A stretch of 64,000 bases of DNA from Candidatus Latescibacterota bacterium (GTDB taxonomy: Bacteria > Latescibacterota > UBA2968 > UBA8231): NCBI GenBank assembly GCA_965217585.1, contig OZ244561.1, positions 4,288,001-4,352,000 of the forward strand. The letters run 5' to 3'. Shown here in pieces: positions 9,679 through 27,287 of the stretch. The position numbers and the translations under genes are program-made. Positions within the stretch are counted from its first letter, which is position 1, and every line of letters begins with the position of its first letter. The notes below the pieces were generated by a model. It was not told the origin of the DNA, did no database searches, and was given only the letters and a program-made list of their open reading frames with translations.

Positions 9679-10761
9679 ATGGTAGCGGGCAAAGGCAGAG
9701 CCAGTGCTAACGGCAAGCCCTTCGGCGAGGATAAGGACAAGGCCATCGGCTTGGCTCTCGCCCAGATCGAACGGCAGTTTGGCAAAGGGGCCATCATGCG
9801 GTTAGGCGAGTCAGCAGCAATGGACGTCGACGTCATTTCCACTGGTGCCATTTCGCTAGACGCGGCCCTCGGGGTCGGTGGGGTGCCCAGAGGTCGGGTC
9901 GTCGAGCTTTTCGGGTCTGAAGCCGCGGGCAAGACCATGCTGGCGTTGCACATCGTCTCCCAGGCGCAACAAACCGGCACGGCAGCTTTCATCGACGCCG
10001 AACACGCGCTCGACGTGAATTTTGCCCGTCGGCTGGGCGTTGATATCGACAATTTGCTCGTCTCACAGCCGGATTCGGGCGAAGAGGCCCTAGAGATTAC
10101 GGATACGCTGGTGCGCAGCGGTGCCCTCGATCTCGTCGTGATCGATTCGGTAGCAGCGCTAGTGCCCAAGGCCGAGCTCGAAGGCGATATGGGCGACTCC
10201 CACGTAGGGTTGCAAGCGCGGCTAATGTCCCAAGCCCTGCGCAAGCTCACCGGGTCCTCTAAGAAGTCAGGGACCACGGTGATCTTTATCAACCAGTTGC
10301 GGATGAAGATCGGCGTGATGTTCGGCAGTCCCGAGACTACCACCGGCGGTCGTGCCCTAAACTTCTATTCCTCGGTCCGCCTCGACATCCGTGGCATTGG
10401 CGCGATCAAGGACGGCGACGAGATCATCGGTCGTCGCACCCGCGTCAAGGTCGTCAAGAACAAGGTCGCCCCGCCCTTCCGCGAGGCCGAGTTCGACATC
10501 ATGTTCCGCGGCGACGACGTAGGCATATCGCGCGAGGGCGATCTGCTGGACTTGGGCGTCGACAGCGGTTTCGTCGCCAAAAGTGGCACCTGGTTCTCCT
10601 ATGGTGACGAGCGGTTGGGCCAGGGGCGCGAGAACGCGCGTGTCTTCCTCCGCGACAACCACGAGGTCCGCACGCGCCTAGAGACCGAGGTGCGCCAAGC
10701 CCTCAACATGAAGGTCCCAGAAGTACCTGAGCACAAAGAAGCAGAGGCCGAACTGGCCTAG
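9679..10761 (+). CDS. recA: Recombinase RecA
   Basis: [78 protein letters not shown]. Confidence 0.98.
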
Positions 10762-13205: not shown

Positions 13206-14255
13206 GTGAAGCTGCTCAAAGAGCTATGCGAAAGTGCGGGGGTTCCCGGCCGAGAGGATCGGCTGCGCGAGATCGTGCGGCGGGAGCTCGCGCCCCTGAC
13301 CGACGAGATGCGGGTGGATGCCTTGGGCAACCTGATCGCTGTGAAGAAGGCGAGCAAGGGCAAAAAGGCCAAGAAGCTGATGATCGCCGCGCACATGGAC
13401 GAGATCGGTTTCGTGGTTTCACACATCGACGAGCGGGGCCTTTTGCGGCTGGTGCCCTTAGGCGGGCACGACCCGCGCAACATGGTGGCCCAAAGGGTCG
13501 TCGTCAGGGGCAAGAAGCGCGATCTACCGGGTTTGCTCTACCCAGGTATTAAACCACCGCACATCCAGACGGCGGCCGACCGCGATGCCAAGTTGGCCAT
13601 CAGCGACTTTATCGTCGATCTCTACCTGGCACCTGCCAAGGTCAAGCGCGAGGTCGAGCTTGGTGCGATGGTGACGTTGCAGCGGGATTTCGCCGAGATC
13701 GGCGACGGAGTTTCCTGTAAGGCCATGGACGATCGGGTTGCGCTCTACGTGATGATCCGCGCCATGCAGCAGGCCAAGACCTTTGGCTGTGAGACCTATG
13801 CGGTGGCCACTGTGCAGGAGGAGGTTGGCTTGCGGGGCGCGCAGGTAAGCGCGTTTGGGGTCGAGCCGGACCTGGGGGTAGCCCTCGACGTGACGCTGGC
13901 GGCCGATATTCCGGGGATACCCGAGCACGAGCAGGTGACGCGCTTAGGGCAGGGCGCAGCGATTAAACTGCTGGACTCGTCGGCGATCTCGCACCCGGGC
14001 TTGGTGGCTCAGCTCAGAGGGCTAGCGAAGAAGAGGAAAATCGAGTGCCAATTGGAAATCCTCCCTCTGGGCGGCACGGACGCCGGTGCCATGCAAAGGG
14101 TCCGTACTGGTGTGCCGGTGGCGACGATTTCAGTGCCGACTCGCTACATTCACACCTCGGTCGAGCTGGTTGACAAAGGCGACTTGCAAGCAGCCGTGGA
14201 TCTGCTGACCGCCTTTCTCGAAGAGGGCCATCGGGCCGACTTGACGCTCGTCTGA
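13206..14255 (+). CDS. M42 family aminopeptidase (TET-like)
   Basis: AAHMDEIG, KAMDDR, VQEEVGLRGA, GGTDAG, RYIHT. Confidence 0.93.
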   Translation: MKLLKELCESAGVPGREDRLREIVRRELAPLTDEMRVDALGNLIAVKKASKGKKAKKLMIAAHMDEIGFVVSHIDERGLLRLVPLGGHDPRNMVAQRVVVRGKKRDLPGLLYPGIKPPHIQTAADRDAKLAISDFIVDLYLAPAKVKREVELGAMVTLQRDFAEIGDGVSCKAMDDRVALYVMIRAMQQAKTFGCETYAVATVQEEVGLRGAQVSAFGVEPDLGVALDVTLAADIPGIPEHEQVTRLGQGAAIKLLDSSAISHPGLVAQLRGLAKKRKIECQLEILPLGGTDAGAMQRVRTGVPVATISVPTRYIHTSVELVDKGDLQAAVDLLTAFLEEGHRADLTLV

Positions 14256-14280
14256 ACGATCCCACCCGCAACGGGATCAT

Positions 14281-15189
14281 TCAGCCGAGAGTGATCCTCA
14301 ATACTGGACACTTCCGTCGAGCTCCGCGGGGAATGATACCGATGACATCGACTTTCGCTCCCATCTGCTCGAACTGCCCATGAATCCTATCGCACATGTC
14401 CATGGCAATTAGTAGGATCAGTCGTCCCGTGTGCTTCATGACGCGTAACAGCTCAGGCAACGAGTCCATGACGGCCTGACGGCAGGAACTCCGGAAGGGC
14501 GGTTCTGTGACGATCAGATCGAAGTGGTCGGTTCGTATTGGCAGATGTCTGGCATCGGCAACTACATACAAGTTCGGAAAGTTCACTGAGAGACCTGGAG
14601 ACAGGCTATCATCGATGTCGGACACGAAGACTGTGAGTCCACGACGTCTCCCTTCAAGGGCAAGCCCGCCAAATCCGGCAAATGGATCCAAGATGACATC
14701 CGTTGGCTTTGGATCAGCGATGTTGAACAGAAACCGGGCATCTAGAGTAGACACGGCTCGATGCCAGTTGTGTCCTGACACAACACGCCTGTCTCCATTC
14801 TGGACGATCTCGAACTTGCGATTGCTCGGGGCATCCGCCAGTAGCGCCTGCTTGTCTTGAACGTAAACCTCTGTCTGGTGCACCTTGTAATCACCAACGC
14901 GAATCCAGCCAAGAAGCCACCGTTCGCTCCGAACGGCAGAGATCTCCTCTCCACGGAAGGGCTCGTAGTGCTGGCCGACGATTGCTTCAGTAAACCCGAG
15001 GTCGCCTGCGAGTGCTGCGACTCGATCAGGAATGAGTGGCAGTTCGATCGACATCCGATGCCGTTCCCGCCGGTCCTTCTTGAGTTCTAGACCAAACCGG
15101 CGGTAGACAGCTAGGAACTCCGTCTTCGCCAACTCGTACGGAATGCCAATTCCTCCACGGCTGGTGCGGAAGTAGATCTCATACTGCAT
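14281..15189 (-). CDS. SAM-dependent amino-methyltransferase (Trm11/UPF0020-like); terminal cassette-like gene
   Basis: ILDPFAGFGG motif I, LIVTEPPF motif IV; composition differs from core genes. Confidence 0.75.
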   Translation of the reverse strand: MQYEIYFRTSRGGIGIPYELAKTEFLAVYRRFGLELKKDRRERHRMSIELPLIPDRVAALAGDLGFTEAIVGQHYEPFRGEEISAVRSERWLLGWIRVGDYKVHQTEVYVQDKQALLADAPSNRKFEIVQNGDRRVVSGHNWHRAVSTLDARFLFNIADPKPTDVILDPFAGFGGLALEGRRRGLTVFVSDIDDSLSPGLSVNFPNLYVVADARHLPIRTDHFDLIVTEPPFRSSCRQAVMDSLPELLRVMKHTGRLILLIAMDMCDRIHGQFEQMGAKVDVIGIIPRGARRKCPVLRITLG

Positions 15190-15284
15190 ATCGCCTCAAT
15201 CCCCGACAGGCCTCAATGCCAATTCTCTCCTTAAGAGCGGATATATCTCAATCTATTCTGGATCAACTCGTTTTGTCCCATGTC

Positions 15285-15427
15285 GCTTAACGTCATGCCG
15301 GTTTGCGAACCTGGCTCTCACCCGAAGGGGCTGGCGCGAGCTTGGCCCTGCAAAGCGAGTGACAGAAGCCAGGTTGCCCGAAGGGCCAAGACGCGAATGT
15401 GCCGCAGCGTAAACTGCGCTGTTAAAT
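15285..15427 (-). repeat. attC-like site A (143 bp)
   Basis: + strand: GCTTAAC-gtcatgc-CGGTTTGCG..CGTAAACTG-cgct-GTTAAAT; internal stem AACCTGGCT/AGCCAGGTT and hairpin GCCC-GAA-GGGC. Confidence 0.8.
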
Positions 15428-15460
15428 GACGTGGGCCAATCCGCGGCAAGATATAACGGG

Positions 15461-16000
15461 CTAAACCTCCTCGGCGAAGTCCGATGAGAGAGCTCCCCGA
15501 AATCCAATGCGTTTGTGCGGATCTCTGTATTGAGTCAATTCGTAATGTCCGATCATGAAGCCTTGGGACTCCCAGAACGTCAGGGCGCTCGGATTGTCGC
15601 GGCGTACATTCAAGTCAATCCGATCGATACCCAAGCCGTCGGTGATTTCTGTTACGGCTTGTACAAGGAATGACCCAATGCCCTCTCGGCGTTGCGCAGG
15701 AACAACGTAGAAGTCATTGATCTTCGCGCTAGTGCCACTAATTGAAAATGAAACAAATCCAACCGGGGACCCTTCGCTGAGGCACCAGAAAATCCTTGGT
15801 TCCGGACTGGAAAGGGGAAACCGATCTGCGAAATACACATCGCGGCGATCCGATGAACGTACTGTATCTGCAGTTGGCATTGTCTCCAACCAGTAGGCGT
15901 CAACTAGTGGCCGAAACCTATCCTCAGCGGAAGGAAGCACCTGCTCGAATTCAAGGCGAACGGTCAAAACTCGTCTCTTCTCATATAAGGCCCATGTCAT
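15461..16000 (-). CDS. GNAT family acetyltransferase (cassette)
   Basis: FYVVPAQRREGIGSFL (motif A), NPSALTFWESQGF (motif B). Confidence 0.85.
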   Translation of the reverse strand: MTWALYEKRRVLTVRLEFEQVLPSAEDRFRPLVDAYWLETMPTADTVRSSDRRDVYFADRFPLSSPEPRIFWCLSEGSPVGFVSFSISGTSAKINDFYVVPAQRREGIGSFLVQAVTEITDGLGIDRIDLNVRRDNPSALTFWESQGFMIGHYELTQYRDPHKRIGFRGALSSDFAEEV

Positions 16001-16040
16001 TTAACAGCTTTCCGGTTTGCGAACCCGGAGCGAAGCGGAG
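15999..16040 (-). repeat. Truncated attC-like site B1 (left arm only)
   Basis: ATTTAAC-agctttc-CGGTTTGCG-AAC; the same 9-mer as sites A and E; no partner arm. Confidence 0.65.
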
Positions 16041-16106
16041 GTATTCTCTCCTGTCTACGGTCCATCCGAACACCTCGTTTAGACACCGGTCTGTCGCGCC
16101 AATTTC

Positions 16107-16242
16107 AGGTAACGTTCCGCGGGTTGCCGATGTGTCCGCACATCAGCAGACAGATCGGGGCTTTCAATCAGTCCAACCCATCGGTTGCGGCCATTTTGGT
16201 TGGGTTATAGTTGGGTTGGGTCTCGGCAACTCGCCGTTATCG
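16107..16242 (-). repeat. attC-like site B2 (136 bp)
   Basis: AGGTAAC-gttccgc-GGGTTGCCG..CGGCAACTC-gcc-GTTATCG. Confidence 0.75.
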
Positions 16243-16329
16243 GCTGTGGCGAAGGGGTGGTTTCGTCACTTTCAGCTCTTGAGATCGGGGCGACAATAGA
16301 GCGTGCACCATAGATTCAGCGTGCTTTGT

Positions 16330-16964
16330 TCATTTTGTCAGCACCGGTTTTCGCAAAGTGAAAGACTGGAAGTGCACGCCCTAGGGCTCGACTACGTGGA
16401 AATCCAAGACATCGAAATACTCCCGTACATATCCATGCATCTGATCGTCGGTTCGAAAAGAAAAAAATCGAGGAGGATCGTGCCAGTCGTTAGGCGCTTC
16501 GCCCTCAAACGGGTCACCCCCGTACACGCCCAAAAAAAAGAGACCGCCTGGAACTAAGACGTTTCGGATAGCAGCCAGTACGTCAGATAAATTGACATTC
16601 GGGACATGAAGCAGGCAATTCATTGCATAGACTGCGTCGAAAGAACTCAGGGGAAAGCCCAAATTTAGAAAGTCAGCCGGGTAGCCACGAGACCTTTAGC
16701 GCGGCAGCGTGCAACCATTTCCGGTGAAAGATCAGTCACAACTGTTTCTAACCCACCTTTCTGGAAAAACAAGCCATCCTGACCTGTCCCGGCACCGATC
16801 TCCAGAAGACTCACCTTACCCTCGGTGCGTACGATACTGAGAAAGTCTGCACGCTCAGTCAGCTTCCACGGGGCTTTCTCACGCTGATCGCGTTCTCCTG
16901 CGCTACCGTCATAGGCTACTTGAAGACGAGCGACGACATCTTTGTACTCGAACATTGCTTCCAT
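16330..16964 (-). pseudogene. Class I SAM methyltransferase, disrupted (frameshift plus in-frame TAG)
   Basis: LLEIGAGTG in 16665-16964; a frame change near 16684 continues as YPADFLNLGFPLSSFDAVY; past the TAG at 16381-16383 the frame continues GVHFQSFTLRKPVLTK to TGA at 16330. Confidence 0.8.
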
Positions 16965-17088
16965 TCATTGACCCATTGATTCAGCCTGCCCAAATATCAT
17001 AAGCGAATGTGATTACGATAATGAATGAATAGACGTCTTTGCTACTGCACGCTTTAACGCTTTTTCTGGGTGGGGTTGGGGCGATTGC

Positions 17089-17152
17089 CGATAACGGTCC
17101 CGCCGTGCGCGAACTGCCGGAGGCAGTTGGGCGAAGGCCCTCGTGGCCTGAG
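17089..17152 (-). repeat. Truncated attC-like site C (left arm plus internal hairpins)
   Basis: CGATAAC-ggtcccg-CCGTGCGCG-AACTGCC-gga-GGCAGTT-GGGCGAAGGCCC; right arm missing. Confidence 0.7.
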
Positions 17153-17210
17153 CAAGAAAGATAAGTCTGGATCCAAGCTACAACCTTCTGTTCTGTGACT
17201 CCGGGCTGGC

Positions 17211-17293
17211 GGCTAACGATTTGCCGTGCCCGAACCGTGTAGCGGTTGGGCGAAGGCGCCCAAGCGCCAAAGCCGGGCACGGACGTGTTACCG
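17211..17293 (-). repeat. attC-like site D (83 bp)
   Basis: GGCTAAC-gatttg-CCGTGCCCG-AACCG..CGGTT-..GGCGC-ccaa-GCGCC..CGGGCACGG-acgt-GTTACCG. Confidence 0.82.
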
Positions 17294-17303
17294 GAAATGA
17301 ACA

Positions 17304-17813
17304 CTAACACGAGCGCTCGAGAAGTTTACGCATACGAGGCCGATGGATCTCTACGAACCAGGGGTCCAGAAAAGGCAAATACTCGAGCTGCCGGGAATCC
17401 GGAAGGAAAAAGAAGTCGCACTTATGACGTCGTCGGCAATTGGACGCCCCGCATTGACACTCCCAAACATCACCGTCAACCGCGTTCAACGAGTAGTCAA
17501 AGAAGAGTTCCTCGTTCGGACAAATATCGCGCATTGCCAATACGAACCGCTGCCTAAAAACAGAATACACGAAAACATTTGGATCGCAGGAGTGGTTAAA
17601 GAAGCCTGCGGGCTTTTGCATTAGCACCGTCGTGCCATCCGGTAGCCAGTCTCGGTGGATCGGATCTTCGCCCAATTCTGGCCTGAGCGGGTGTTCCTCG
17701 TCAACGACGCGGGTATCGTCGATTCGGTGAATGACCTCGCACCGGCGTATATAGGCCGTGGAAAACACGCCATAGCCGTGTAACGTTGATTTTTTCACAA
17801 CAACCTTGCTCAT
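17304..17813 (-). CDS. SET-domain lysine methyltransferase with post-SET cysteines (cassette)
   Basis: HGYGVFS, FFNHSCDPN, EELFFDY, CQCGASNCR. Confidence 0.9.
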   Translation of the reverse strand: MSKVVVKKSTLHGYGVFSTAYIRRCEVIHRIDDTRVVDEEHPLRPELGEDPIHRDWLPDGTTVLMQKPAGFFNHSCDPNVFVYSVFRQRFVLAMRDICPNEELFFDYSLNAVDGDVWECQCGASNCRRRHKCDFFFLPDSRQLEYLPFLDPWFVEIHRPRMRKLLERSC

Positions 17814-17842
17814 TTCTTGACAGCAGTTGGTTAGTTCGTTTC

Positions 17843-17931
17843 AGGTAACGTATTGCCGGTTTGCGAACCGCGGAGCGGTTACCGGAGGCCAAGGCGCCAT
17901 CGGCGCCGCAACGCAAAACGCGCTGTTATCG
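17843..17931 (-). repeat. attC-like site E (89 bp)
   Basis: AGGTAAC-gtattgc-CGGTTTGCG-AACCGC-gga-GCGGTT..GGCGCC-atc-GGCGCC..CGCAAAACG-cgct-GTTATCG. Confidence 0.82.
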
Positions 17932-17988
17932 GCAGTCGCCTTCGCAGCCCGTCCTCGAGAGGAGGCGTGGGGTGCGCAAACGAGAACT

Positions 17989-18007
17989 CGCAAACCGAGT
18001 GTTGCCT
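17989..18007 (-). repeat. Orphan right arm of an attC-like site
   Basis: CGCAAACCG-agt-GTTGCCT; the 9-mer is the exact complement of CGGTTTGCG; lies just after the NUDIX stop. Confidence 0.55.
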
Positions 18008-18014
18008 CGGTTGC

Positions 18015-18554
18015 TTACTCCTTCAATAGGCCAGCAGCAATGAGAGCGCGATGGTGCAGGGGTAGAAAAACGTCCAGCGCCAACTCCCCAAGGACTCCTT
18101 CAGGTTGAACCAGTTTGCGCGCCAGCGTCTCGTGTTCGGGCACCCACTCATTGAGCTCGACTCTCGCTAGCCAGATCGAGCGCACGAGCACTAGACCCTT
18201 TTCGTGCCCCCTGATGCACTCTCCGCGGGAGAATCCCAGAAGCTTTGCCTCTCTGACCTCAACGCATGCTTCCTCTCTCATCTCCCGCCGCAGGGTTTCC
18301 TCCCACGACTCGCTTCCTTCCGGTCTGCCTGCCGGGAATCCCCACGTTTCCCCATCTTGCGTAGCCAACACGACCTCGCCGTTGTCTGTCAAGCAAATAC
18401 CACCAGAGCCGTGGCGTTGCCCTTCCGGCACATCGTGAGAAGGAAACCAAGTGACGAGAACATCCTGTCCTCCCGTTTCTACCAGAAATGCTTCGTATTC
18501 CCTTGCTGGCCCTGATGCCTCAGACATCCATTGCCCTCTTTGGAATGTGATCAT
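18015..18554 (-). CDS. NUDIX hydrolase (cassette)
   Basis: Nudix box GRPEGSESWEETLRREMREEAC. Confidence 0.9.
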   Translation of the reverse strand: MITFQRGQWMSEASGPAREYEAFLVETGGQDVLVTWFPSHDVPEGQRHGSGGICLTDNGEVVLATQDGETWGFPAGRPEGSESWEETLRREMREEACVEVREAKLLGFSRGECIRGHEKGLVLVRSIWLARVELNEWVPEHETLARKLVQPEGVLGELALDVFLPLHHRALIAAGLLKE

Positions 18555-18599
18555 GAGATGTGCTCCAATTTGCGTCCATTTCGTCCACCACCTGCACCG

Positions 18600-18668
18600 C
18601 TATAACCCAGTCGTTTTTGTCGGGAATGGGAAAGTCGGCGAGGGGAGCGTGACCGGTCTGATATTCCC
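18600..18668 (-). repeat. Degenerate attC-like site F (left arm only)
   Basis: CTATAAC-ccagtcg-TTTTTGTCG has the same spacing to the CG, then GGGAAT..ATTCCC; abuts the stop of the FlgD-domain gene. Confidence 0.45.
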
Positions 18669-18671
18669 CGT

Positions 18672-20843
18672 TCAGTATGCTACAGCGACGGGCTGCAGGC
18701 GGATCTCACTGCCCTTATCCGTCTCTACTTCCACCCGCGCCAGATAGATGCCAGGGCCGACCAGCTGTCCGGCTCCATCCCGACCGTCCCAGCGGGCCGT
18801 ATGGCGCCCCGCGGCCTGAGCCTCTGGCTGCGCCTGCCATACCCGCCGTCCGTCCAGGGCATAGATGCCGACCTTTACCTCGGACGCCTGCTGCACCCGG
18901 AACAAGGTATACTGGATGGATAACTGGTCGTTGACGCCGTCCCCCTGAGGGGTAAAAGCGCGGCTCCCCACCTCGAGATCCCCCAGAACTCCCCTTGCCG
19001 CGGAGGCCGACGCCACCACCACCAGCTGGTTGGAACCAAGCTCCTCGCTGACATCACCGCCTTCGACCCGCTGCAACAAGCTCTGTTCCCCGCGGTTGAA
19101 GACCTCCCCTCCGAACTCGCCGGCCTCGTCGTAGAGCACCGTTTCCAGCCCAATGCGCAGCCGCTGATCGCCCTCCGGACTCAAGCGGCGGGGCAAAAAT
19201 ACAACAAAACCGCTTTCCTCGTTCACGATGCTGTCCGGTTCCACGGCGCCCAGGGGCTCACCTATCTCCAGCCAGCCGAACTCCGCTTCCGCCGGCGTCA
19301 TGACCCGCACGACGTCGAAGCCGGTGCGATCCGCGCTGGAAAATTCAACGCCAATATCGTATACGAACGACTTTTTCTCGCCCGCCGGCACGCGAACTCG
19401 CCCGCCCTGCGGCTGGTGATTTTCCTCCAGGACCACCTCGCCCACGACCCGATCCGCCAACAGCGGCGCGATCTCGATCTGCAGCGAATCCAGCCGGGCA
19501 AAGTCAAAGAACGCATCCGTCTCTAGCTGCACCCGCAGCTGAAAGTAGCGCCCCCACGGCAGGCGCGGGTGCTGCCCCGACTCCTCGAGTGGCACCGACC
19601 AGAAACTCCAGTTTTTCAGATCCTCGACCACCGGCCCTCGGAATCCCACCGCCGGCACCGTGGCGCCGCGCGCCTCCAGTCTAGATATGGAACTGATCAA
19701 GGTCGCCCTCGGCACGGAGGAAGTCAGCCGTTCCCACTGTTTCTTGGTCACCTCCACGTGGGCTCCCAGATCGTCAAAGCCGAAGTAGGCCGTCGGAGTG
19801 TCGTCGCGACCCGTCCTGATCTCCACCTGGACGCGAACCGGCCCGTCCTCGAGGGCGACCAACTGCTCCCCGTCCTTGCGCCACTTGCTCACCTCGAAGA
19901 CCACTCGCCCGAAGTTGACCTCCCGCCCCAGGTCCACTATCTGCGACTCCCAGGTCGCCGTAGGCGCAAAACCCCGGCCGTAGACCTCCATCTCCGCATA
20001 AGCCGACTGGACGACGATCGGCTGACCGTCCAAAGTGACTCCGTCGGGGACTTCCAGCAGGCGCAAATAGCGCAAATTCTGCAGCGGGAAGCGGACCTCG
20101 GTGACGCTGTCGCGGTTGGCTTGGCGGTAGGCTAGCTGATTTTCCAGCGGGCAGCAGAAGCCCGCCCCGCGCCATCTGAAGCCCCGCTCCATCTCCTCTT
20201 CCATTATACCTCCCTCGTCCTGGCGGGCTGTCAGGCTGAATAATTTGAGGACATAGTTGGGACGAAAGGGCTGGTCGCTGTCGGGGCTCACCCCCTCGGG
20301 AGGGTAGAACACAAAGCGCTCCACCGGCACCTGCGCGCCCATATCTATCGTGTAATAGAAAGACGACCCCAATGGTGGGCGGCTGCGCCGGTCGGCGACC
20401 TCGTCCCTGCGCTCGACGTAGGTGGCGGGATCGCCGTCGACGAAGACGAGGAGGTCGGCCTGGTACAAAATGCCATAATTCCCCAGGTTCTCGTCGCGGC
20501 TCTTCAATAGAAAGTTGCCGTGTCCCAGCCACAAACGCGGATGACCCGGGTGGTAAACCGGGTCGAAGGTGAACCTGAAGGGCTGCCAGGGTCCCAACCG
20601 AGGCAAGAGGTTCTCGTCCGGCTTGAGTTCGAAAGGCTGGAGCGCCCCGGCGGCGGTCGAGTCGTCCGTCATCAGGCTGAAATCCGCTACTTCCGTCCAG
20701 GAAACGCCGCCCTCTCCTCCGAGCCGCCACCAATTTTCTTGGGCCGCCCCATGGCTGCAAAACCCTGCAATCCCACACAGCACGGCAAAGGCCAAAATCG
20801 CCACTTTCGCGTTTATGCGCACCCGAACATCAGGAATCCACAA
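18672..20843 (-). CDS. Secreted protein with C-terminal FlgD Ig-like domain
   Basis: Signal-like N terminus (AAQ-ENWW); C terminus FTPQGDGVND..IYALDGRRV..WDGRDGAGQLVGPGIYL. Start uncertain. Confidence 0.8.
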   Translation of the reverse strand: MWIPDVRVRINAKVAILAFAVLCGIAGFCSHGAAQENWWRLGGEGGVSWTEVADFSLMTDDSTAAGALQPFELKPDENLLPRLGPWQPFRFTFDPVYHPGHPRLWLGHGNFLLKSRDENLGNYGILYQADLLVFVDGDPATYVERRDEVADRRSRPPLGSSFYYTIDMGAQVPVERFVFYPPEGVSPDSDQPFRPNYVLKLFSLTARQDEGGIMEEEMERGFRWRGAGFCCPLENQLAYRQANRDSVTEVRFPLQNLRYLRLLEVPDGVTLDGQPIVVQSAYAEMEVYGRGFAPTATWESQIVDLGREVNFGRVVFEVSKWRKDGEQLVALEDGPVRVQVEIRTGRDDTPTAYFGFDDLGAHVEVTKKQWERLTSSVPRATLISSISRLEARGATVPAVGFRGPVVEDLKNWSFWSVPLEESGQHPRLPWGRYFQLRVQLETDAFFDFARLDSLQIEIAPLLADRVVGEVVLEENHQPQGGRVRVPAGEKKSFVYDIGVEFSSADRTGFDVVRVMTPAEAEFGWLEIGEPLGAVEPDSIVNEESGFVVFLPRRLSPEGDQRLRIGLETVLYDEAGEFGGEVFNRGEQSLLQRVEGGDVSEELGSNQLVVVASASAARGVLGDLEVGSRAFTPQGDGVNDQLSIQYTLFRVQQASEVKVGIYALDGRRVWQAQPEAQAAGRHTARWDGRDGAGQLVGPGIYLARVEVETDKGSEIRLQPVAVAY

Positions 20844-21825
20844 GGCTTTTTAATCCACTTTCCAAGTCATCCAGCCATTGCGGCGTTTTGGGGTGAAAGG
20901 CTCCCAACACTTCCCAGAACCAGCACAAACCGGCACCCATGGTGGCTTGTCTGACTTTAAGGTACGTCTCATCTGGTTCTATCCGCACTCCACCTGCCTC
21001 CGCATACCCCGCCCAAAACTCCTGCGGATAGTGATCGCGACCATAAATTTCTTGAGGTTCTCGGGTAAACTCTGCTGCGACATGCAGTTGTTCATGTAGA
21101 AGGTCGCCAGTCGCTCCATTCTCAAAATCGTGAATGCCGACTATATGGCCATCATCATCAACCAAAAGATTGTGTATAGTTGCATCTCCCCATAGAAGCC
21201 CTTGAGGACTCGGATTCGGCACGACATCAATCTTGTCCAGAAGATCTTCGATAATGGGCAACTTGGCTTGACAATCTTCTGGCAGGTCGGCTACCAAGTC
21301 CTGATTGTAAAGGAGCTTTCTCCGTATGTCTTCTCGCCATTGGGTCATATCCTGCACGGGCAGAAGACCGTCGGATACTCTCTGTTCATTGATGGCAGCG
21401 ACCACTGAGCCAAATTCTTTGAGCAGGCGACACCGCCGATCATCGCTAGTACTGGGCATCTCGAAAAAGTCTCGTCCTTGAGTACCGGGGAGCAGACTAG
21501 AAATCAGATAAGGATATCCGAACGCATCGGTGTCCTCGCATAATACACTGATCTCCGGGACGGGCAGAGTGGTTGTATCGCGTAACAATGCGGTAATATT
21601 GAAATCGACCGCTAGCGAGAAGGCTTTTCGATACTTGATCTTGATCACATAGCTGCCGTCGCAACACACTGCCTTGTAGACACAGTTGGTTGGATTTGCT
21701 TCAAGTTCAGTCCATTCGATAACCGAGCCTAGCCCCTGTCTAGCAAAAGCCACTGCTCCCTGCTCAGCAGTAAAGGTCGGCTTTGCCTTGGAGGCTTCTA
21801 TAAATGCTTGCTTGCTGATCGCCAA
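20830..21825 (-). CDS. Aminoglycoside phosphotransferase/choline kinase-like protein (cassette)
   Basis: YVIKIK, Brenner-like LLWGDATIHNLLV, GIHDFE. Confidence 0.75.
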   Translation of the reverse strand: MAISKQAFIEASKAKPTFTAEQGAVAFARQGLGSVIEWTELEANPTNCVYKAVCCDGSYVIKIKYRKAFSLAVDFNITALLRDTTTLPVPEISVLCEDTDAFGYPYLISSLLPGTQGRDFFEMPSTSDDRRCRLLKEFGSVVAAINEQRVSDGLLPVQDMTQWREDIRRKLLYNQDLVADLPEDCQAKLPIIEDLLDKIDVVPNPSPQGLLWGDATIHNLLVDDDGHIVGIHDFENGATGDLLHEQLHVAAEFTREPQEIYGRDHYPQEFWAGYAEAGGVRIEPDETYLKVRQATMGAGLCWFWEVLGAFHPKTPQWLDDLESGLKSLVDS

Positions 21826-21892
21826 ATCTACGCTCTGATATACTGTAACTTTCTTGATGTGCTAACTGATGTGCGCAAGGATCTCATTTTTC

Positions 21893-21980
21893 GCGTAACG
21901 TTCCCGGCACCCACGAACCTGCCGAAGGCGGGTTGGGCGGAGGGCCGTATGGCCCGAAGCCGTGGGTGCTCGTGTTACAC
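21893..21980 (-). repeat. attC-like site G (88 bp)
   Basis: GCGTAAC-gttcccg-GCACCCACG-AACCTGCC-gaa-GGCGGGTT..GGGCC-gtat-GGCCC..CGTGGGTGC-tcgt-GTTACAC; the sulfotransferase TAA lies in the core. Confidence 0.85.
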
Positions 21981-22718
21981 GCTGACCGTGGTCCGACTCG
22001 GGCTTCCTTGATCTTTAGATGTCAGAGATTCCTCAAACCTACTCAGGCCTTCTTTGAACGTAGGACCGTAGGCCTCTTTCTTCTGTTCCAGACAGTCCGC
22101 GGCTTCCCGATACCTGGTATAGTCATCCTCGTTCAGAGCTCTGAACCCCTGGATTATCCTGTCCTCCAGGTTTGGCATTTGGTATTCTCCTTCGTTTTTC
22201 GGACAGAAGGGAATCCACGACCACTGAAACTGCCAATACATCAGAAAGACAGATTCATTGAATCTGTCCGTCAGACCAACGAAGTCGAACTCGCGGACAC
22301 CGCGTCCACCTCTCTTGAGCCACTTTGTGAAGCGATTATGATTATATCCGGGAGGATTCGGCCACTGGAACTCCTGATCGTGAGTCAACCATTCCGCGAG
22401 GCCTTTGTCATCGAAATGAGGTTCAGAACTATCGGCGGACCTTTTTCGAGTGTGGTGATACATCGAAATCGCCGACTCAAGTGGGTCCCTCAGAAAGGTC
22501 AGCCAAATGCAGTTCTCGTAAGATGTAATAAGACCAGTGAAGCGGTCAAGAACGCTGTGACCGTGAAGGCAGACTGGATTCTCTACGATAGGATCTTCCG
22601 GATGGTCATCATAAGTTCTCTGAAGCCGGGACCCAAACCGTGCCTCTAGAATTGAGGCCAGAGTGCTCCCACCCGTCTTTGGAATGTGTATGCTCACATA
22701 GAGCGGTTCTTTCGGCAC
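21975..22718 (-). CDS. Sulfotransferase family 2 protein (cassette)
   Basis: 5'-PSB motif IHIPKTGGST, 3'-PB motif TFLRDPLESAISMY, FDFVGLTD, LNEDD..Y. Confidence 0.85.
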   Translation of the reverse strand: MPKEPLYVSIHIPKTGGSTLASILEARFGSRLQRTYDDHPEDPIVENPVCLHGHSVLDRFTGLITSYENCIWLTFLRDPLESAISMYHHTRKRSADSSEPHFDDKGLAEWLTHDQEFQWPNPPGYNHNRFTKWLKRGGRGVREFDFVGLTDRFNESVFLMYWQFQWSWIPFCPKNEGEYQMPNLEDRIIQGFRALNEDDYTRYREAADCLEQKKEAYGPTFKEGLSRFEESLTSKDQGSPSRTTVSV

Positions 22719-22787
22719 GGAGAGTCCCCTATGGGTTGGTGCTCAATAAACCGGTGGCCGGGACCCGTAGTTCAGACCACGGTTTGC

Positions 22788-22881
22788 GTGTAACGGCCTC
22801 ACCATTTACGACCCCGCGCATGCGGGGTGGGCGGTAGCCCCAAGCGCCATATGGCGCGCAGCGTAAATGGATGTGTTAGAT
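22788..22881 (-). repeat. attC-like site H (94 bp)
   Basis: GTGTAAC-ggcctca-CCATTTACG-ACCCCGC-gcat-GCGGGGT-GGGC-ggta-GCCC-caa-GCGCC-atat-GGCGC-gcag-CGTAAATGG-atgt-GTTAGAT. Confidence 0.85.
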
Positions 22882-27210: not shown

Positions 27211-27287
27211 TGGTGGGCGATCGCAGACTTGAACTGCGGACCTCCTGCATGTCAAGCAGGCGCTCTAGCCAGCTGAGCTAATCGCCC
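27211..27287 (-). tRNA. tRNA-Val(GAC)
   Basis: GGGCGATTAGCTCAGCTGGCTAGAGCGCCTGCTTGACATGCAGGAGGTCCGCAGTTCAAGTCTGCGATCGCCCACCA; cloverleaf, anticodon GAC, encoded CCA. Confidence 0.97.

Follow-up and report, generated by a model that had tools for sequence, protein, structure and literature searches.

The locus raises the question of why each gene of a cassette array should be bracketed by an inverted repeat of its own, while the recombination sites left between the genes are hybrids. The window, by which we mean the whole 64,000-nucleotide stretch of Latescibacterota chromosome that was analysed, contains an integron-type gene cassette array without a genomic integron integrase. A cluster of attC sites lacking an integron integrase (CALIN) is defined by at least two attC sites with no intI nearby; here there are six complete attC sites in 7.6 kb, and intI is absent from the genome, in which the best match to an integron integrase reaches 84 bits against a cut-off of 265. 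The genes all lie on the minus strand, and the attC that travels with each sits downstream of it. As the attC owned by each gene is the one at lower coordinates, the gene strand (minus in the window) is the top strand, and in the cassettes surveyed for ORFs the longest ORF is on this strand, pointing to attC. The main array has a conserved position just beyond an M42 peptidase gene, in the window and in at least five other genomes of the genus; the whole genome has 11 attC hits, with further, smaller clusters scattered outside the main array. A Pfam search of the window found no transposase, and an Rfam search returned tRNA only, no Rfam family covering these sites. Taken by itself, the 14-nt arm motif is at chance level in the window (14 matches against 11.4 expected). 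The array cassettes are unrelated to resistance cassettes. The features are listed below, with 'head' for the repeat arm at the 5' end of a cassette and 'tail' for the arm beside its attC.

14257-15291, minus strand: terminal unit of the array, a 302-aa methyltransferase-domain gene at 14281-15189 (Pfam) with a head-like end at 15275-15291
15285-15427, minus strand: attC of the GNAT cassette (site A; R1 70.9 bits), its centre enlarged by an insertion of about 55 nt
15421-15437: GNAT tail arm (R'' and extension), from the repeat comparison
15461-16000, minus strand: GNAT acetyltransferase gene (Pfam PF00583, E 8e-16)
15989-16005: GNAT head arm, differing from the tail arm only at position 11 (tail G, head A)
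16006-16113, minus strand: geneless short unit B1, an L'-R' half-site only (11.4 bits)
16107-16242, minus strand: attC of the methyltransferase cassette (site B2; R1 56.1 bits), which travels with the gene in genome G054
16236-16250: methyltransferase tail arm, from the flank comparison
16381-16964, minus strand: methyltransferase gene (Pfam), broken up here into a 99-aa and a 93-aa ORF, with an ORF of 190 aa in the G054 copy
17081-17095: methyltransferase head arm, also a near-perfect partner for the NUDIX tail at 17925
17096-17217, minus strand: second geneless short unit, S0, an L'-R' half-site and centre only (9 bits)
17211-17293, minus strand: attC of the SET cassette (site S; R1 70 bits; fold z-score -4.7)
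17287-17302: SET tail arm, from the flank comparison
17304-17813, minus strand: SET-domain gene (Pfam PF00856, E 1e-14)
17834-17849: SET head arm
17843-17931, minus strand: attC of the NUDIX cassette (site C; R1 71.8 bits), the whole site homologous from TAAC to the attC of a second NUDIX copy
17925-18546, minus strand: NUDIX cassette body, with tail arm 17925-17940 and gene 18015-18554 (Pfam)
18546-21899, minus strand: non-attC segment, with a type IX secretion-signal protein at 18672-20843 and an APH-family kinase at 20830-21825 (Pfam)
21893-21980, minus strand: attC of the 247-aa cassette (site D; R1 88.5 bits), which travels with the gene in genome G037
21974-21993: tail arm of the 247-aa cassette, covering the last six codons of the gene, whose stop codon is the TAA of TAAC
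21975-22718, minus strand: 247-aa gene, no family match found
22775-22794: head arm of the 247-aa cassette
22788-22881, minus strand: attC (site E) of the unit to its right (R1 70.3 bits)

The terminal unit is followed by no attC and adjoins the M42 peptidase gene at its stop codon; to its left, the sole R1 match is a weak one at 10113. It is present in one of the 30 other genomes of the genus (G045), the M42 gene is widespread, and divergence between genomes starts directly past the M42 stop codon. No tail was found for the head at 15291, nor a head matching the tail at 22875 of the site E unit (best candidate 12/20). The NUDIX cassette is headless in the window, its homology with the intact copy ending at 18546. 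The segment from 18546 to 21899 has no internal attC, and its only cassette-like part is the APH head at 21880-21899; in other genomes there are module boundaries near 18546 and 20808, and APH is a complete cassette in G052. The label 'sulfotransferase' that the first-pass annotation gave to the 247-aa gene finds no support among Pfam, NCBIfam or PDB sequences; an N-terminal PKTGGS stretch resembles the sulfate-donor loop.

All four inverted repeats reported in that annotation are present, at 15421+/16005- (GNAT, 16/17 identical), 16236+/17095- (methyltransferase, 9/9), 17287+/17849- (SET, 14/16) and 21974+/22794- (247-aa cassette, 18/20, or 20/23 when extended). The methyltransferase pair is in fact longer than its nine letters: positions 12, 14 and 15 match too, and the differences at positions 10 and 11 follow a pattern that is systematic in this attC family. 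We compared eight TAAC-side flanks with six GTTA-side flanks (48 pairs), scoring matches minus mismatches beyond GTTA. The bracketing pairs score 15 (GNAT), 9 (methyltransferase), 12 (SET) and 17 (247-aa cassette), and each ranks best or second-best; among the remaining 44 pairs, three score at least 10 and the others at most 8. These three are 17095-/17925+ (14; 15/16 identical), 15291-/15421+ (11; 15/19) and 16113-/17287+ (10). The head at 17095 thus fits the NUDIX tail at 17925 better than its own methyltransferase tail, and the NUDIX copy elsewhere in the genome has a head closely related to it; the methyltransferase and NUDIX tails match at 13/15 and their heads are related too, although the genes are different. 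Five of the six complete sites (scores 4 to 6) bear out the further claim that a site's two cores agree over TAAC/GTTA alone; site A (15285-15427) contradicts it, its flanks matching at 15/19. A G at position 8 is also common to nearly all sites.

Copies of four cassettes, in the same and in related genomes, keep their ends and swap neighbours exactly at TAAC, as expected from the crossover at GTT that had been proposed. Within the unit, the copies of the methyltransferase (G054), 247-aa (G037) and NUDIX (second copy in the same genome) cassettes are 95 to 99% identical. For the first two, homology includes the lower-coordinate attC and turns unrelated at TAAC on both sides; for NUDIX the switch at TAAC is seen at the attC end, the sole comparable end. 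As neighbours change at TAAC (G|TT on the gene strand), the unit is made up of the head, the gene, the tail and, downstream of the gene, its attC; TAAC being common to all sites, these comparisons place the bond within TAAC and no finer. In the second copy of the GNAT cassette, the head end changes over at TAAC, and the other end retains only the R''-proximal half of attC, to which the gene-side half of site A is 96% identical; thus, exchange has not always occurred at G|TT.

From one genome to another, and in contigs of other sequencing runs, a given cassette is found beside different neighbours, which bears out the suggestion that the units were inserted independently. Among the 24 other runs, represented by assembled contigs, contigs break or re-join at 16005/16118, 16110, 17096, 21895 and 22796, and in X5 and X6, contigs from two of these runs, B1 is missing as an exact TAAC-to-TAAC unit, 16005 being joined to 16118 with 5 letters between. 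No circle junction was seen in these contigs, a form of data in which a rare circle would not show; one 901-letter contig spans exactly 21896-22796 and could equally represent a branch point of the assembly. At the DNA level, no close relative of the SET cassette was found in the genus (best metagenome contig matches 41 to 53% over about 40 residues), and distant GNAT homologues (72 to 93% identity, 13 loci) lie mostly outside intact cassettes and gave no usable head-tail pairs.

We then aligned heads with tails in two sets of cassettes, 22 non-redundant ones from the window's genus (set A) and 16 from another genus (set B), the genomes supplying them being related to one another. In both sets, head and tail co-vary through position 15 and then drop to background. 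Head-tail identity at positions 5 to 15 is 0.86, 0.82, 0.77, 0.86, 0.77, 0.59, 0.05, 0.77, 0.73, 0.73 and 0.82 in set A and 0.88, 0.94, 1.0, 1.0, 1.0, 0.62, 0.06, 1.0, 1.0, 0.94 and 0.81 in set B; at positions 16 and 17 it is 0.45 at both in set A (0.09 to 0.50 further out) and 0.31 and 0.25 in set B. At least seven of the nine variable positions match in 17/22 and 15/16 cognate pairs, against 14/462 and 4/240 non-cognate pairs, and none of 10000 permutations of the heads reached the observed match total in either set. Positions 1 to 4 (GTTA) are fixed and position 8 is a conserved G, whereas positions 5-7, 9-10 and 12-15 are cassette-specific and co-vary; position 4 is always A, and positions 5 to 7 follow R, R, Y loosely (11, 13 and 17 of 22 tails). 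In 20/22 (set A) and 15/16 (set B) cassettes, the tail has G at position 11 where the head has A, so that the recombined bottom strand carries a G·T wobble there and the top strand an A·C mismatch. The new part of these results is a regular, sharply bounded, cassette-specific outer helix of 15 bp with a strand-asymmetric wobble. Close copies of one cassette differ one-sidedly, with no compensating change, at head position 16 (G037) and at positions 5 to 6 (three copies), which fits decay without integrase.

Near-empty units also occur, their bodies measuring 31 nt (G045) and 143 nt (G034), to which B1 and S0 in the window can be added, and the stop codon lies inside TAAC in 5/22 cassettes. The ATG of the head (positions 11 to 13) was considered as a start codon and rejected, since it starts the longest ORF in 0/22 cassettes.

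When a head was joined in silico to its own attC, as on the excised circle, the long outer stem predicted in the first-pass annotation was restored and the folding energy fell, an effect that non-cognate heads fail to produce. From in place to circular, the bottom-strand fold goes from -35.9 to -44.7 kcal/mol for GNAT, from -29.8 to -33.4 for the methyltransferase, from -30.6 to -37.4 for SET and from -27.7 to -45.1 for the 247-aa cassette, drops of 3.6 to 17.4 kcal/mol; non-cognate heads fold at -27.4 to -38.7 kcal/mol. On the circle, the bottom strand folds more stably than the top strand in 4/4 cassettes.

The sites themselves share several structural features with attC and in others depart from its canonical form. 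All six in the window, and 53/73 in a wider set, carry both TAAC and GTTA. The six fold as imperfect hairpins, with pairing kept through two-sided changes in 11/18 consensus pairs (RNAalifold). Across 64 distinct related sites, the inner stem shows compensatory changes in 11/11 pairs and is 91% paired; its covariation score, from an alignment (A2) fitted to the model, of which the six-site RNAalifold run is independent, is 0.509, against 0.189 when shuffled (reached in 0/500 shuffles) and at most 0.114 with the partner slid. In place, the two outermost pairs fail to form in 34 and 33 of the 64 sites, as is expected of hybrid sites. The R-L spacer is strongly asymmetric, with four unpaired columns on the bottom-strand AAC arm and none opposite, so that the net extra length is on the AAC arm; one bulged base lies on the other arm. 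The account of attC structure in PMC5027507 places extrahelical bases on the arm opposite the bottom-strand AAC and gives the unpaired central spacer as 5 to 6 nt per arm. By that rule the single bulge is on the expected arm, and the net extra length on the AAC arm.

Taken together, these results make it very probable that the bracketing repeats are the two halves of the outermost stem of each cassette's own attC, split when the circle is inserted, and that the array is a CALIN. On the gene strand, a cassette would run from head through gene and tail to its own attC hairpin, ending at the G of G|TT. Insertion of the circular cassette would have the crossover cut the outermost helix of attC, one half (TTA and about 12 bases) passing to the 5' end of the cassette as its head and the other remaining beside attC as its tail. 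Such a split means that the sites in an array are hybrids, in each of which the neighbouring cassette supplies the closing head. Of this picture, the analysis showed where the units end, that the sites are hybrid, that head and tail co-vary with a sharp end at position 15, and that folding energy is gained on circularisation. Whether this helix has a function is more finely balanced: the chances are about even that the full helix, a complete duplex arm for the recombinase, forms only in the excised circle, which would accordingly be a better substrate than the hybrid sites of the array, and that position 11 aids strand selection. The repeats may also bear on how cassettes arise, as the first-pass annotation suggested, though the hints of this are indirect.

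It is unlikely that head-tail complementarity is instead a functionless, decaying vestige of cassette making, as when a gene is placed at the base of a pre-existing hairpin module. The one-sided differences between close copies would suit such an origin, as would the related ends of the methyltransferase and NUDIX cassettes (tails 13/15) with their different genes, the near-empty units (31 nt in G045, 143 nt in G034, B1 and S0), and the stop codons inside TAAC in 5/22 cassettes together with the six codons of the 247-aa gene within the stem. However, cassette-specific co-variation that stops sharply at position 15 in two genera speaks against it, and the G/A at position 11 and the G at position 8, fixed or conserved family-wide, point to a constraint on the helix. 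Pairing of head with tail in mRNA, between the 5' and 3' ends of each cassette transcript, might control translation or stability, and the arms do lie in untranslated ends or at the start or end of coding sequence. This seems very improbable to us, as position 11 is an A·C mismatch on the gene strand in 20/22 and 15/16 cassettes, the wobble being on the opposite DNA strand, and the head ATG starts the longest ORF in none of the 22. A gene bracketed by inverted repeats also recalls a small transposon or MITE-like element with its own terminal inverted repeats; the variation of the repeats between units, the lack of a transposase, and boundaries inside a shared TAAC beside a conserved, co-varying hairpin reduce the probability of this to almost nothing.

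A host Xer-type recombinase, in place of an integron integrase, might move the cassettes, working on the folded circle with the 12- to 15-bp outer helix in imitation of a dif arm; this is improbable but would amount to an integrase-free cassette system. Filamentous phages integrate at dif via folded single-strand sites used by Xer recombinases; there, as in the integron, a single-strand hairpin offers a tyrosine recombinase its duplex arms, and the product of a one-strand exchange is resolved by replication. In favour of such movement, this genome lacks intI, none of the 30 other genus genomes has an intact one, and five genomes have 3 to 5 tyrosine recombinases each. The GC-skew maximum holds a dif-like site (G000 6412482-6412509) that is single-copy in 23/31 genus genomes and has a conserved recombinase gene 3 to 6 kb away. 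Taken from the centre outward, one arm of it agrees with TTA-nnn-G-[AC][AC]-A-T, the consensus of the heads, ranking in the top 0.4% (positions 8 to 13) or top 2% (positions 5 to 14) of 69328 genomic TTA sites, in an after-the-fact comparison of two arms with two matrices. The second arm does not fit this consensus, none of the 11 attC hits in the genome is near the dif candidate, and the inner stem is by eye unlike the other dif arm; thus neither integration at dif nor imitation of both arms, as in Xer-dependent elements, was found, the likeness being a weak one of a single arm. The same attC family, moreover, occurs in G006 and G007, which have an integron integrase, and in one genus member intI is broken into two pieces that overlap, the C-terminal of which aligns full-length at 53 to 61% identity to the intI of relatives. 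Integrases above the family cut-off occur in 9/76 genomes of the order. A complete integron would have intI and attI beside its array; the genome has no integrase above the cut-off, and in the five genomes examined for tyrosine recombinases none of these is close to an array. Next to intI in G006, G007, G058, G065 and short intI contigs there was no site of this attC family, and a scan for perfect stems near those genes, which is blind to canonical bulged sites, found no arrays.

Much of the behaviour of this array is that of known integron cassettes, class 1 and chromosomal: one gene followed by an imperfect hairpin with AAC and GTT ends, stop codons often within the site, and better folding of the bottom strand than of the top. 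Both the G|TT crossover and the hybrid nature of array sites are already published; the core of our reading, that the 5' end of a cassette carries the far half of its own R box and that array sites are hybrid, was known. Neighbours that change at G|TT and chimeric array sites appear in the descriptions of arrays given in PMC4889954, PMC5371416 and PMC2674596; in the site descriptions of the first two, the R box is taken as 7 bp, whereas the outer helix here extends over 15 bp, and its wobble at position 11 and G at position 8 are fixed. Counted by eye from the G of GTT, the stretch of identity in six class 1 cassettes measures 8, 6, 9, 13, 12 and 8, shorter and irregular; the corresponding figure for a Thiodictyon plasmid integron is 7 to 9, up to 11/13 positions matching. 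Unlike canonical attC, which has two or three bulged bases, the sites here have one and an asymmetric R-L spacer; by eye, the net extra length in class 1 and Thiodictyon sites is not on the AAC arm. Our search, which did not extend to the older 59-base element papers, found no published description of a longer attC outer stem. CALINs as described by Cury et al. (2016, PMC4889954) share with this array two or more attC sites, no intI nearby and none in the genome, but the main array here occupies one conserved chromosomal place past the M42 peptidase gene and in this respect looks like a sedentary chromosomal integron after loss of the integrase.

Our literature search found no paper on integrons in the phylum Latescibacterota, and the present results document cassette arrays there, with recent exchange between species. 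Head-tail matching pairs the ends of a cassette, separates intact from rearranged cassettes and fixes site orientation without an integrase; in the window it exposed the NUDIX cassette as truncated and picked out the two half-site units. A functional helix would mean that a complete site exists only on the excised circle, which would give a physical reason for stable arrays and for efficient re-insertion of circles, and position 11 would be a strand-selection signal distinct from the extrahelical bases studied so far.

We found one family of attC-type hairpin sites in the window, with six members, all on the plus strand within 15285-22881, together with two half-sites at 16002 and 17092. The sites are separated by small genes, every one of which is on the minus strand.

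Hairpin sites and genes of the array
15285-15427, plus strand, hairpin site A
16107-16242, plus strand, hairpin site B2
17211-17293, plus strand, hairpin site S
17843-17931, plus strand, hairpin site C
21893-21980, plus strand, hairpin site D
22788-22881, plus strand, hairpin site E
Minus strand, GNAT acetyltransferase gene
Minus strand, methyltransferase gene, split
Minus strand, gene for a SET-domain protein
Minus strand, NUDIX hydrolase gene
Minus strand, gene for a protein with a type IX secretion signal
Minus strand, APH-family kinase gene
Minus strand, gene for a 247-aa protein with no family match

The window sites fold into imperfect hairpins whose two ends are TAAC and GTTA, and 11 of the 18 consensus pairs are kept across the six sites despite two-sided changes. 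A covariance model built from them (R1) matches 11 sites in the 7.3-Mb genome of the organism itself and a further 67 in the loci fetched from related genomes; among these, all 11 inner-stem pairs show compensatory changes, in an alignment fitted to the model. The spacer between outer and inner stems is lopsided, with four unpaired columns on the bottom-strand AAC arm and none facing them. The window attC have a single bulged base in the arm opposite AAC, which is the arm expected under the rule in PMC5027507, whereas the net extra length lies in the other arm. Elsewhere in the same genome the family forms small clusters and single sites (618019-619675, 3291121-3294436, 2100792 and 2188228), among which the GNAT and NUDIX cassettes each have a second copy.

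The methyltransferase (16381-16964) is read as two ORFs of 99 and 93 aa, and its 98%-identical copy in a related genome (G054) as a single 190-aa ORF; the window copy is probably a pseudogene. Within the array, no attC separates the secretion-signal and APH genes (18546-21899), which other genomes carry as separate modules with limits near 18546 and 20808; in two related genomes (G052 and G050), APH forms a complete cassette whose attC is 66 nt long. An orphan arm at 17985-18007, just 3' of the NUDIX stop codon and kept in the NUDIX paralog, pairs over 10 bp with an arm of site C and ends in GTTG, not GTTA. A tRNA gene (27214-27287, minus strand), the sole Rfam match in the window, lies about 4 kb past the last attC.

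The extent of the mobile unit can be read from copies in other settings. The methyltransferase cassette recurs in G054 (98% identity) and the 247-aa cassette in another related genome, G037 (99%). In both copies, near-identity starts at the TAAC that closes the attC on its low-coordinate side, runs across tail, gene and head, and stops at the next TAAC; immediately beyond TAAC, the flanks on either side are unrelated. As the copies switch at TAAC, the cassette is a unit of head, gene, tail and downstream attC, head and tail being the two arms at its ends. The top strand is the gene strand and the bottom strand is the plus strand of the window, and the crossover within TAAC on the plus strand is G/TT, between G and TT, on the gene strand. 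The first-pass annotation had placed the crossover there, with units inserted independently, and had proposed looking for the same ends beside different neighbours; these copies bear out the crossover and the independence. Of the paralogs within the genome, the NUDIX copy (668/704 identical) matches from the TAAC of site C across the entire site. The GNAT copy (633/656) stops at the TAAC of its head, and at its far end covers just the R''-proximal half of site A, a site enlarged by an insertion of about 55 nt. In four other sequencing runs, contigs, possibly from related organisms, break or re-join at the unit boundaries, passing into unrelated sequence at 16110, 17096, 21895 and 22796; a 108-nt half-site unit (16006-16113) is absent in two runs. 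A gene with a downstream attC and crossover at G/TT is the textbook definition of a cassette (PMC2674596), and array sites are described as chimeric in PMC4889954 and in the methods of PMC5371416.

We compared the tail of each site with the head at the next site for all adjacent site pairs in the fetched loci, numbering arms outward from the G of GTTA (positions 1-4). From 73 sites, 38 adjacent pairs with standard GTTA/TAAC ends were obtained; for the window GNAT and methyltransferase cassettes, the head at the half-site took the place of the adjacent-site pair. After merging of pairs that were 80% or more alike, 29 remained, the window GNAT, methyltransferase and 247-aa pairs being dropped in favour of their copies. 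Set A comprises the 22 of these 29 with bodies of at most 1500 nt, and set B comprises 16 cassettes of one 35-kb array in G006, a genome of a different genus with an integrase elsewhere.

In both sets, head-tail identity is high at positions 5 to 15 and then drops toward the non-cognate level, abruptly in set B; set A retains 0.45 at positions 16 and 17. Nearly every head and tail has G at position 8; at position 11 the tail has G and the head A (20/22 in set A, 15/16 in set B), and at position 10 the tail often has T where the head has A. At least seven of the nine variable positions match in 17 of 22 own pairs in set A and 15 of 16 in set B, against 14 of 462 and 4 of 240 non-cognate pairs, respectively; in 10000 permutations of heads among cassettes, none reached the observed total match. 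The seven long-body pairs mostly lack a head-tail match, as expected where a site escaped detection or foreign DNA intervenes. Each of the four window cassettes examined fits the helix rule; in the methyltransferase pair, positions 1-9, 12, 14 and 15 match, and 10 and 11 show the systematic differences.

The four inverted repeat pairs reported earlier as bracketing the GNAT, methyltransferase, SET and 247-aa cassettes are present exactly as described and score 15, 9, 12 and 17 in a full table of 8 x 6 flanks. The accompanying claim that the two cores of an in-place site match only over about TAAC/GTTA stands for five of the six (scores 4 to 6) and fails for site A, which scores 11. The same table gave an unexpected pair, 17095-/17925+, with a score of 14. 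The window NUDIX cassette lacks a head, and its homology to the intact copy elsewhere in the genome ends at 18546; the match arises because the head of that intact copy is closely related to 17072-17095. Thus, the heads and tails of the methyltransferase and NUDIX cassettes are related, although the genes they enclose differ.

When heads were joined by coordinates to their own attC, the in-silico circularisation proposed at first pass, the predicted bottom-strand fold became deeper in every case.

Predicted bottom-strand folding energies (kcal/mol)
GNAT: in place -35.9, circular -44.7
Methyltransferase: in place -29.8, circular -33.4
SET: in place -30.6, circular -37.4
247-aa cassette: in place -27.7, circular -45.1

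The cognate head is the best in each row, which bears out the restored stem inferred at first pass, and the 12 non-cognate joins are predicted at -27.4 to -38.7 kcal/mol. In the circular form, the bottom strand is predicted to be more stable than the top in all four cassettes. This predicted advantage fits position 11, where the bottom strand would have a G·T wobble and the top strand an A·C mismatch.

Four observations hint at how cassettes may be created. Related outer helices enclose different genes, and some units consist of the two helix halves and an attC with little else. The coding region enters the tail arm and stops at the TAA of TAAC in 5 of 22 cassettes; between close copies, decay is one-sided. 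These hints are compatible with the placing of genes at the base of a pre-existing hairpin module, and equally with selection on the helix. One locus of a related genome (L067, from G045) has an 'empty' cassette with a 31-nt body between two attC sites (17754-17772, oriented coordinates), in which APH-type tail and head arms lie back to back (23/26 complementary).

No integron integrase was found in the organism's own genome. Five genomes of the genus have only 3 to 5 tyrosine recombinases each, none near an array, and integrases above cut-off occur in 9 of 76 genomes of the order. Within the genus the only one is in G030, where it lies on a short contig as two overlapping pieces; its C-terminal piece aligns over its full length to intI of relatives (53 to 61% identity). 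Cassettes 97 to 99% identical occupy different contexts in different species, and in the window and at least five other genomes of the genus the main array directly follows an M42 peptidase gene, the sequences diverging from its stop codon onward. The variable region starts right after this stop codon (...TCTGAA; window 14253-14260, and related loci L084-L089), and four kinds of continuation are seen among the window and six other genomes. The M42 stop looks like a fixed chromosomal docking point, and the simplest reading is a chromosomal integron that has lost its integrase, with an integrase acting in the past or in trans.

There is also a weaker lead, to an agent other than an integron integrase. 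By GC skew, the origin is at about 2.63 Mb and the terminus at about 6.41 Mb, and a dif-like site with conserved arms and a variable centre lies outside the window at the cumulative GC-skew maximum (6412482-6412509). It occurs as a single copy in 23 of the 31 genus genomes, with a conserved tyrosine recombinase gene (about 330 aa) 3 to 6 kb away, an arrangement resembling single-recombinase Xer systems. At positions 8 to 13, one arm of the dif-like site is closer to the head consensus than 99.6% of the TTA sites in the genome; this comparison was post hoc, the second arm does not fit, and no site of the window attC family lies near dif.

Some extension of the outer stem beyond 7 bp is ordinary, since, read by eye, six class 1 cassettes on two plasmids have identity runs from the G of GTT of 8, 6, 9, 13, 12 and 8 (the cassette with the run of 13 matching at 15/16 overall), and three or four pairs of a Thiodictyon plasmid integron have runs of 7 to 9, with up to 11/13 matching. 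Neither control, again by eye, showed a constant 15-bp length marked by a constant wobble. Our search of the literature, which covered passages of PMC5027507, PMC5371416, PMC4889954 and PMC12614218 and left older subscription literature outside its scope, found no published account of such a helix. The principle of a split outer stem is already known; what is new is a regular, 15-bp, wobble-marked outer helix in a lineage of Latescibacterota without an integrase, which is worth experiment.
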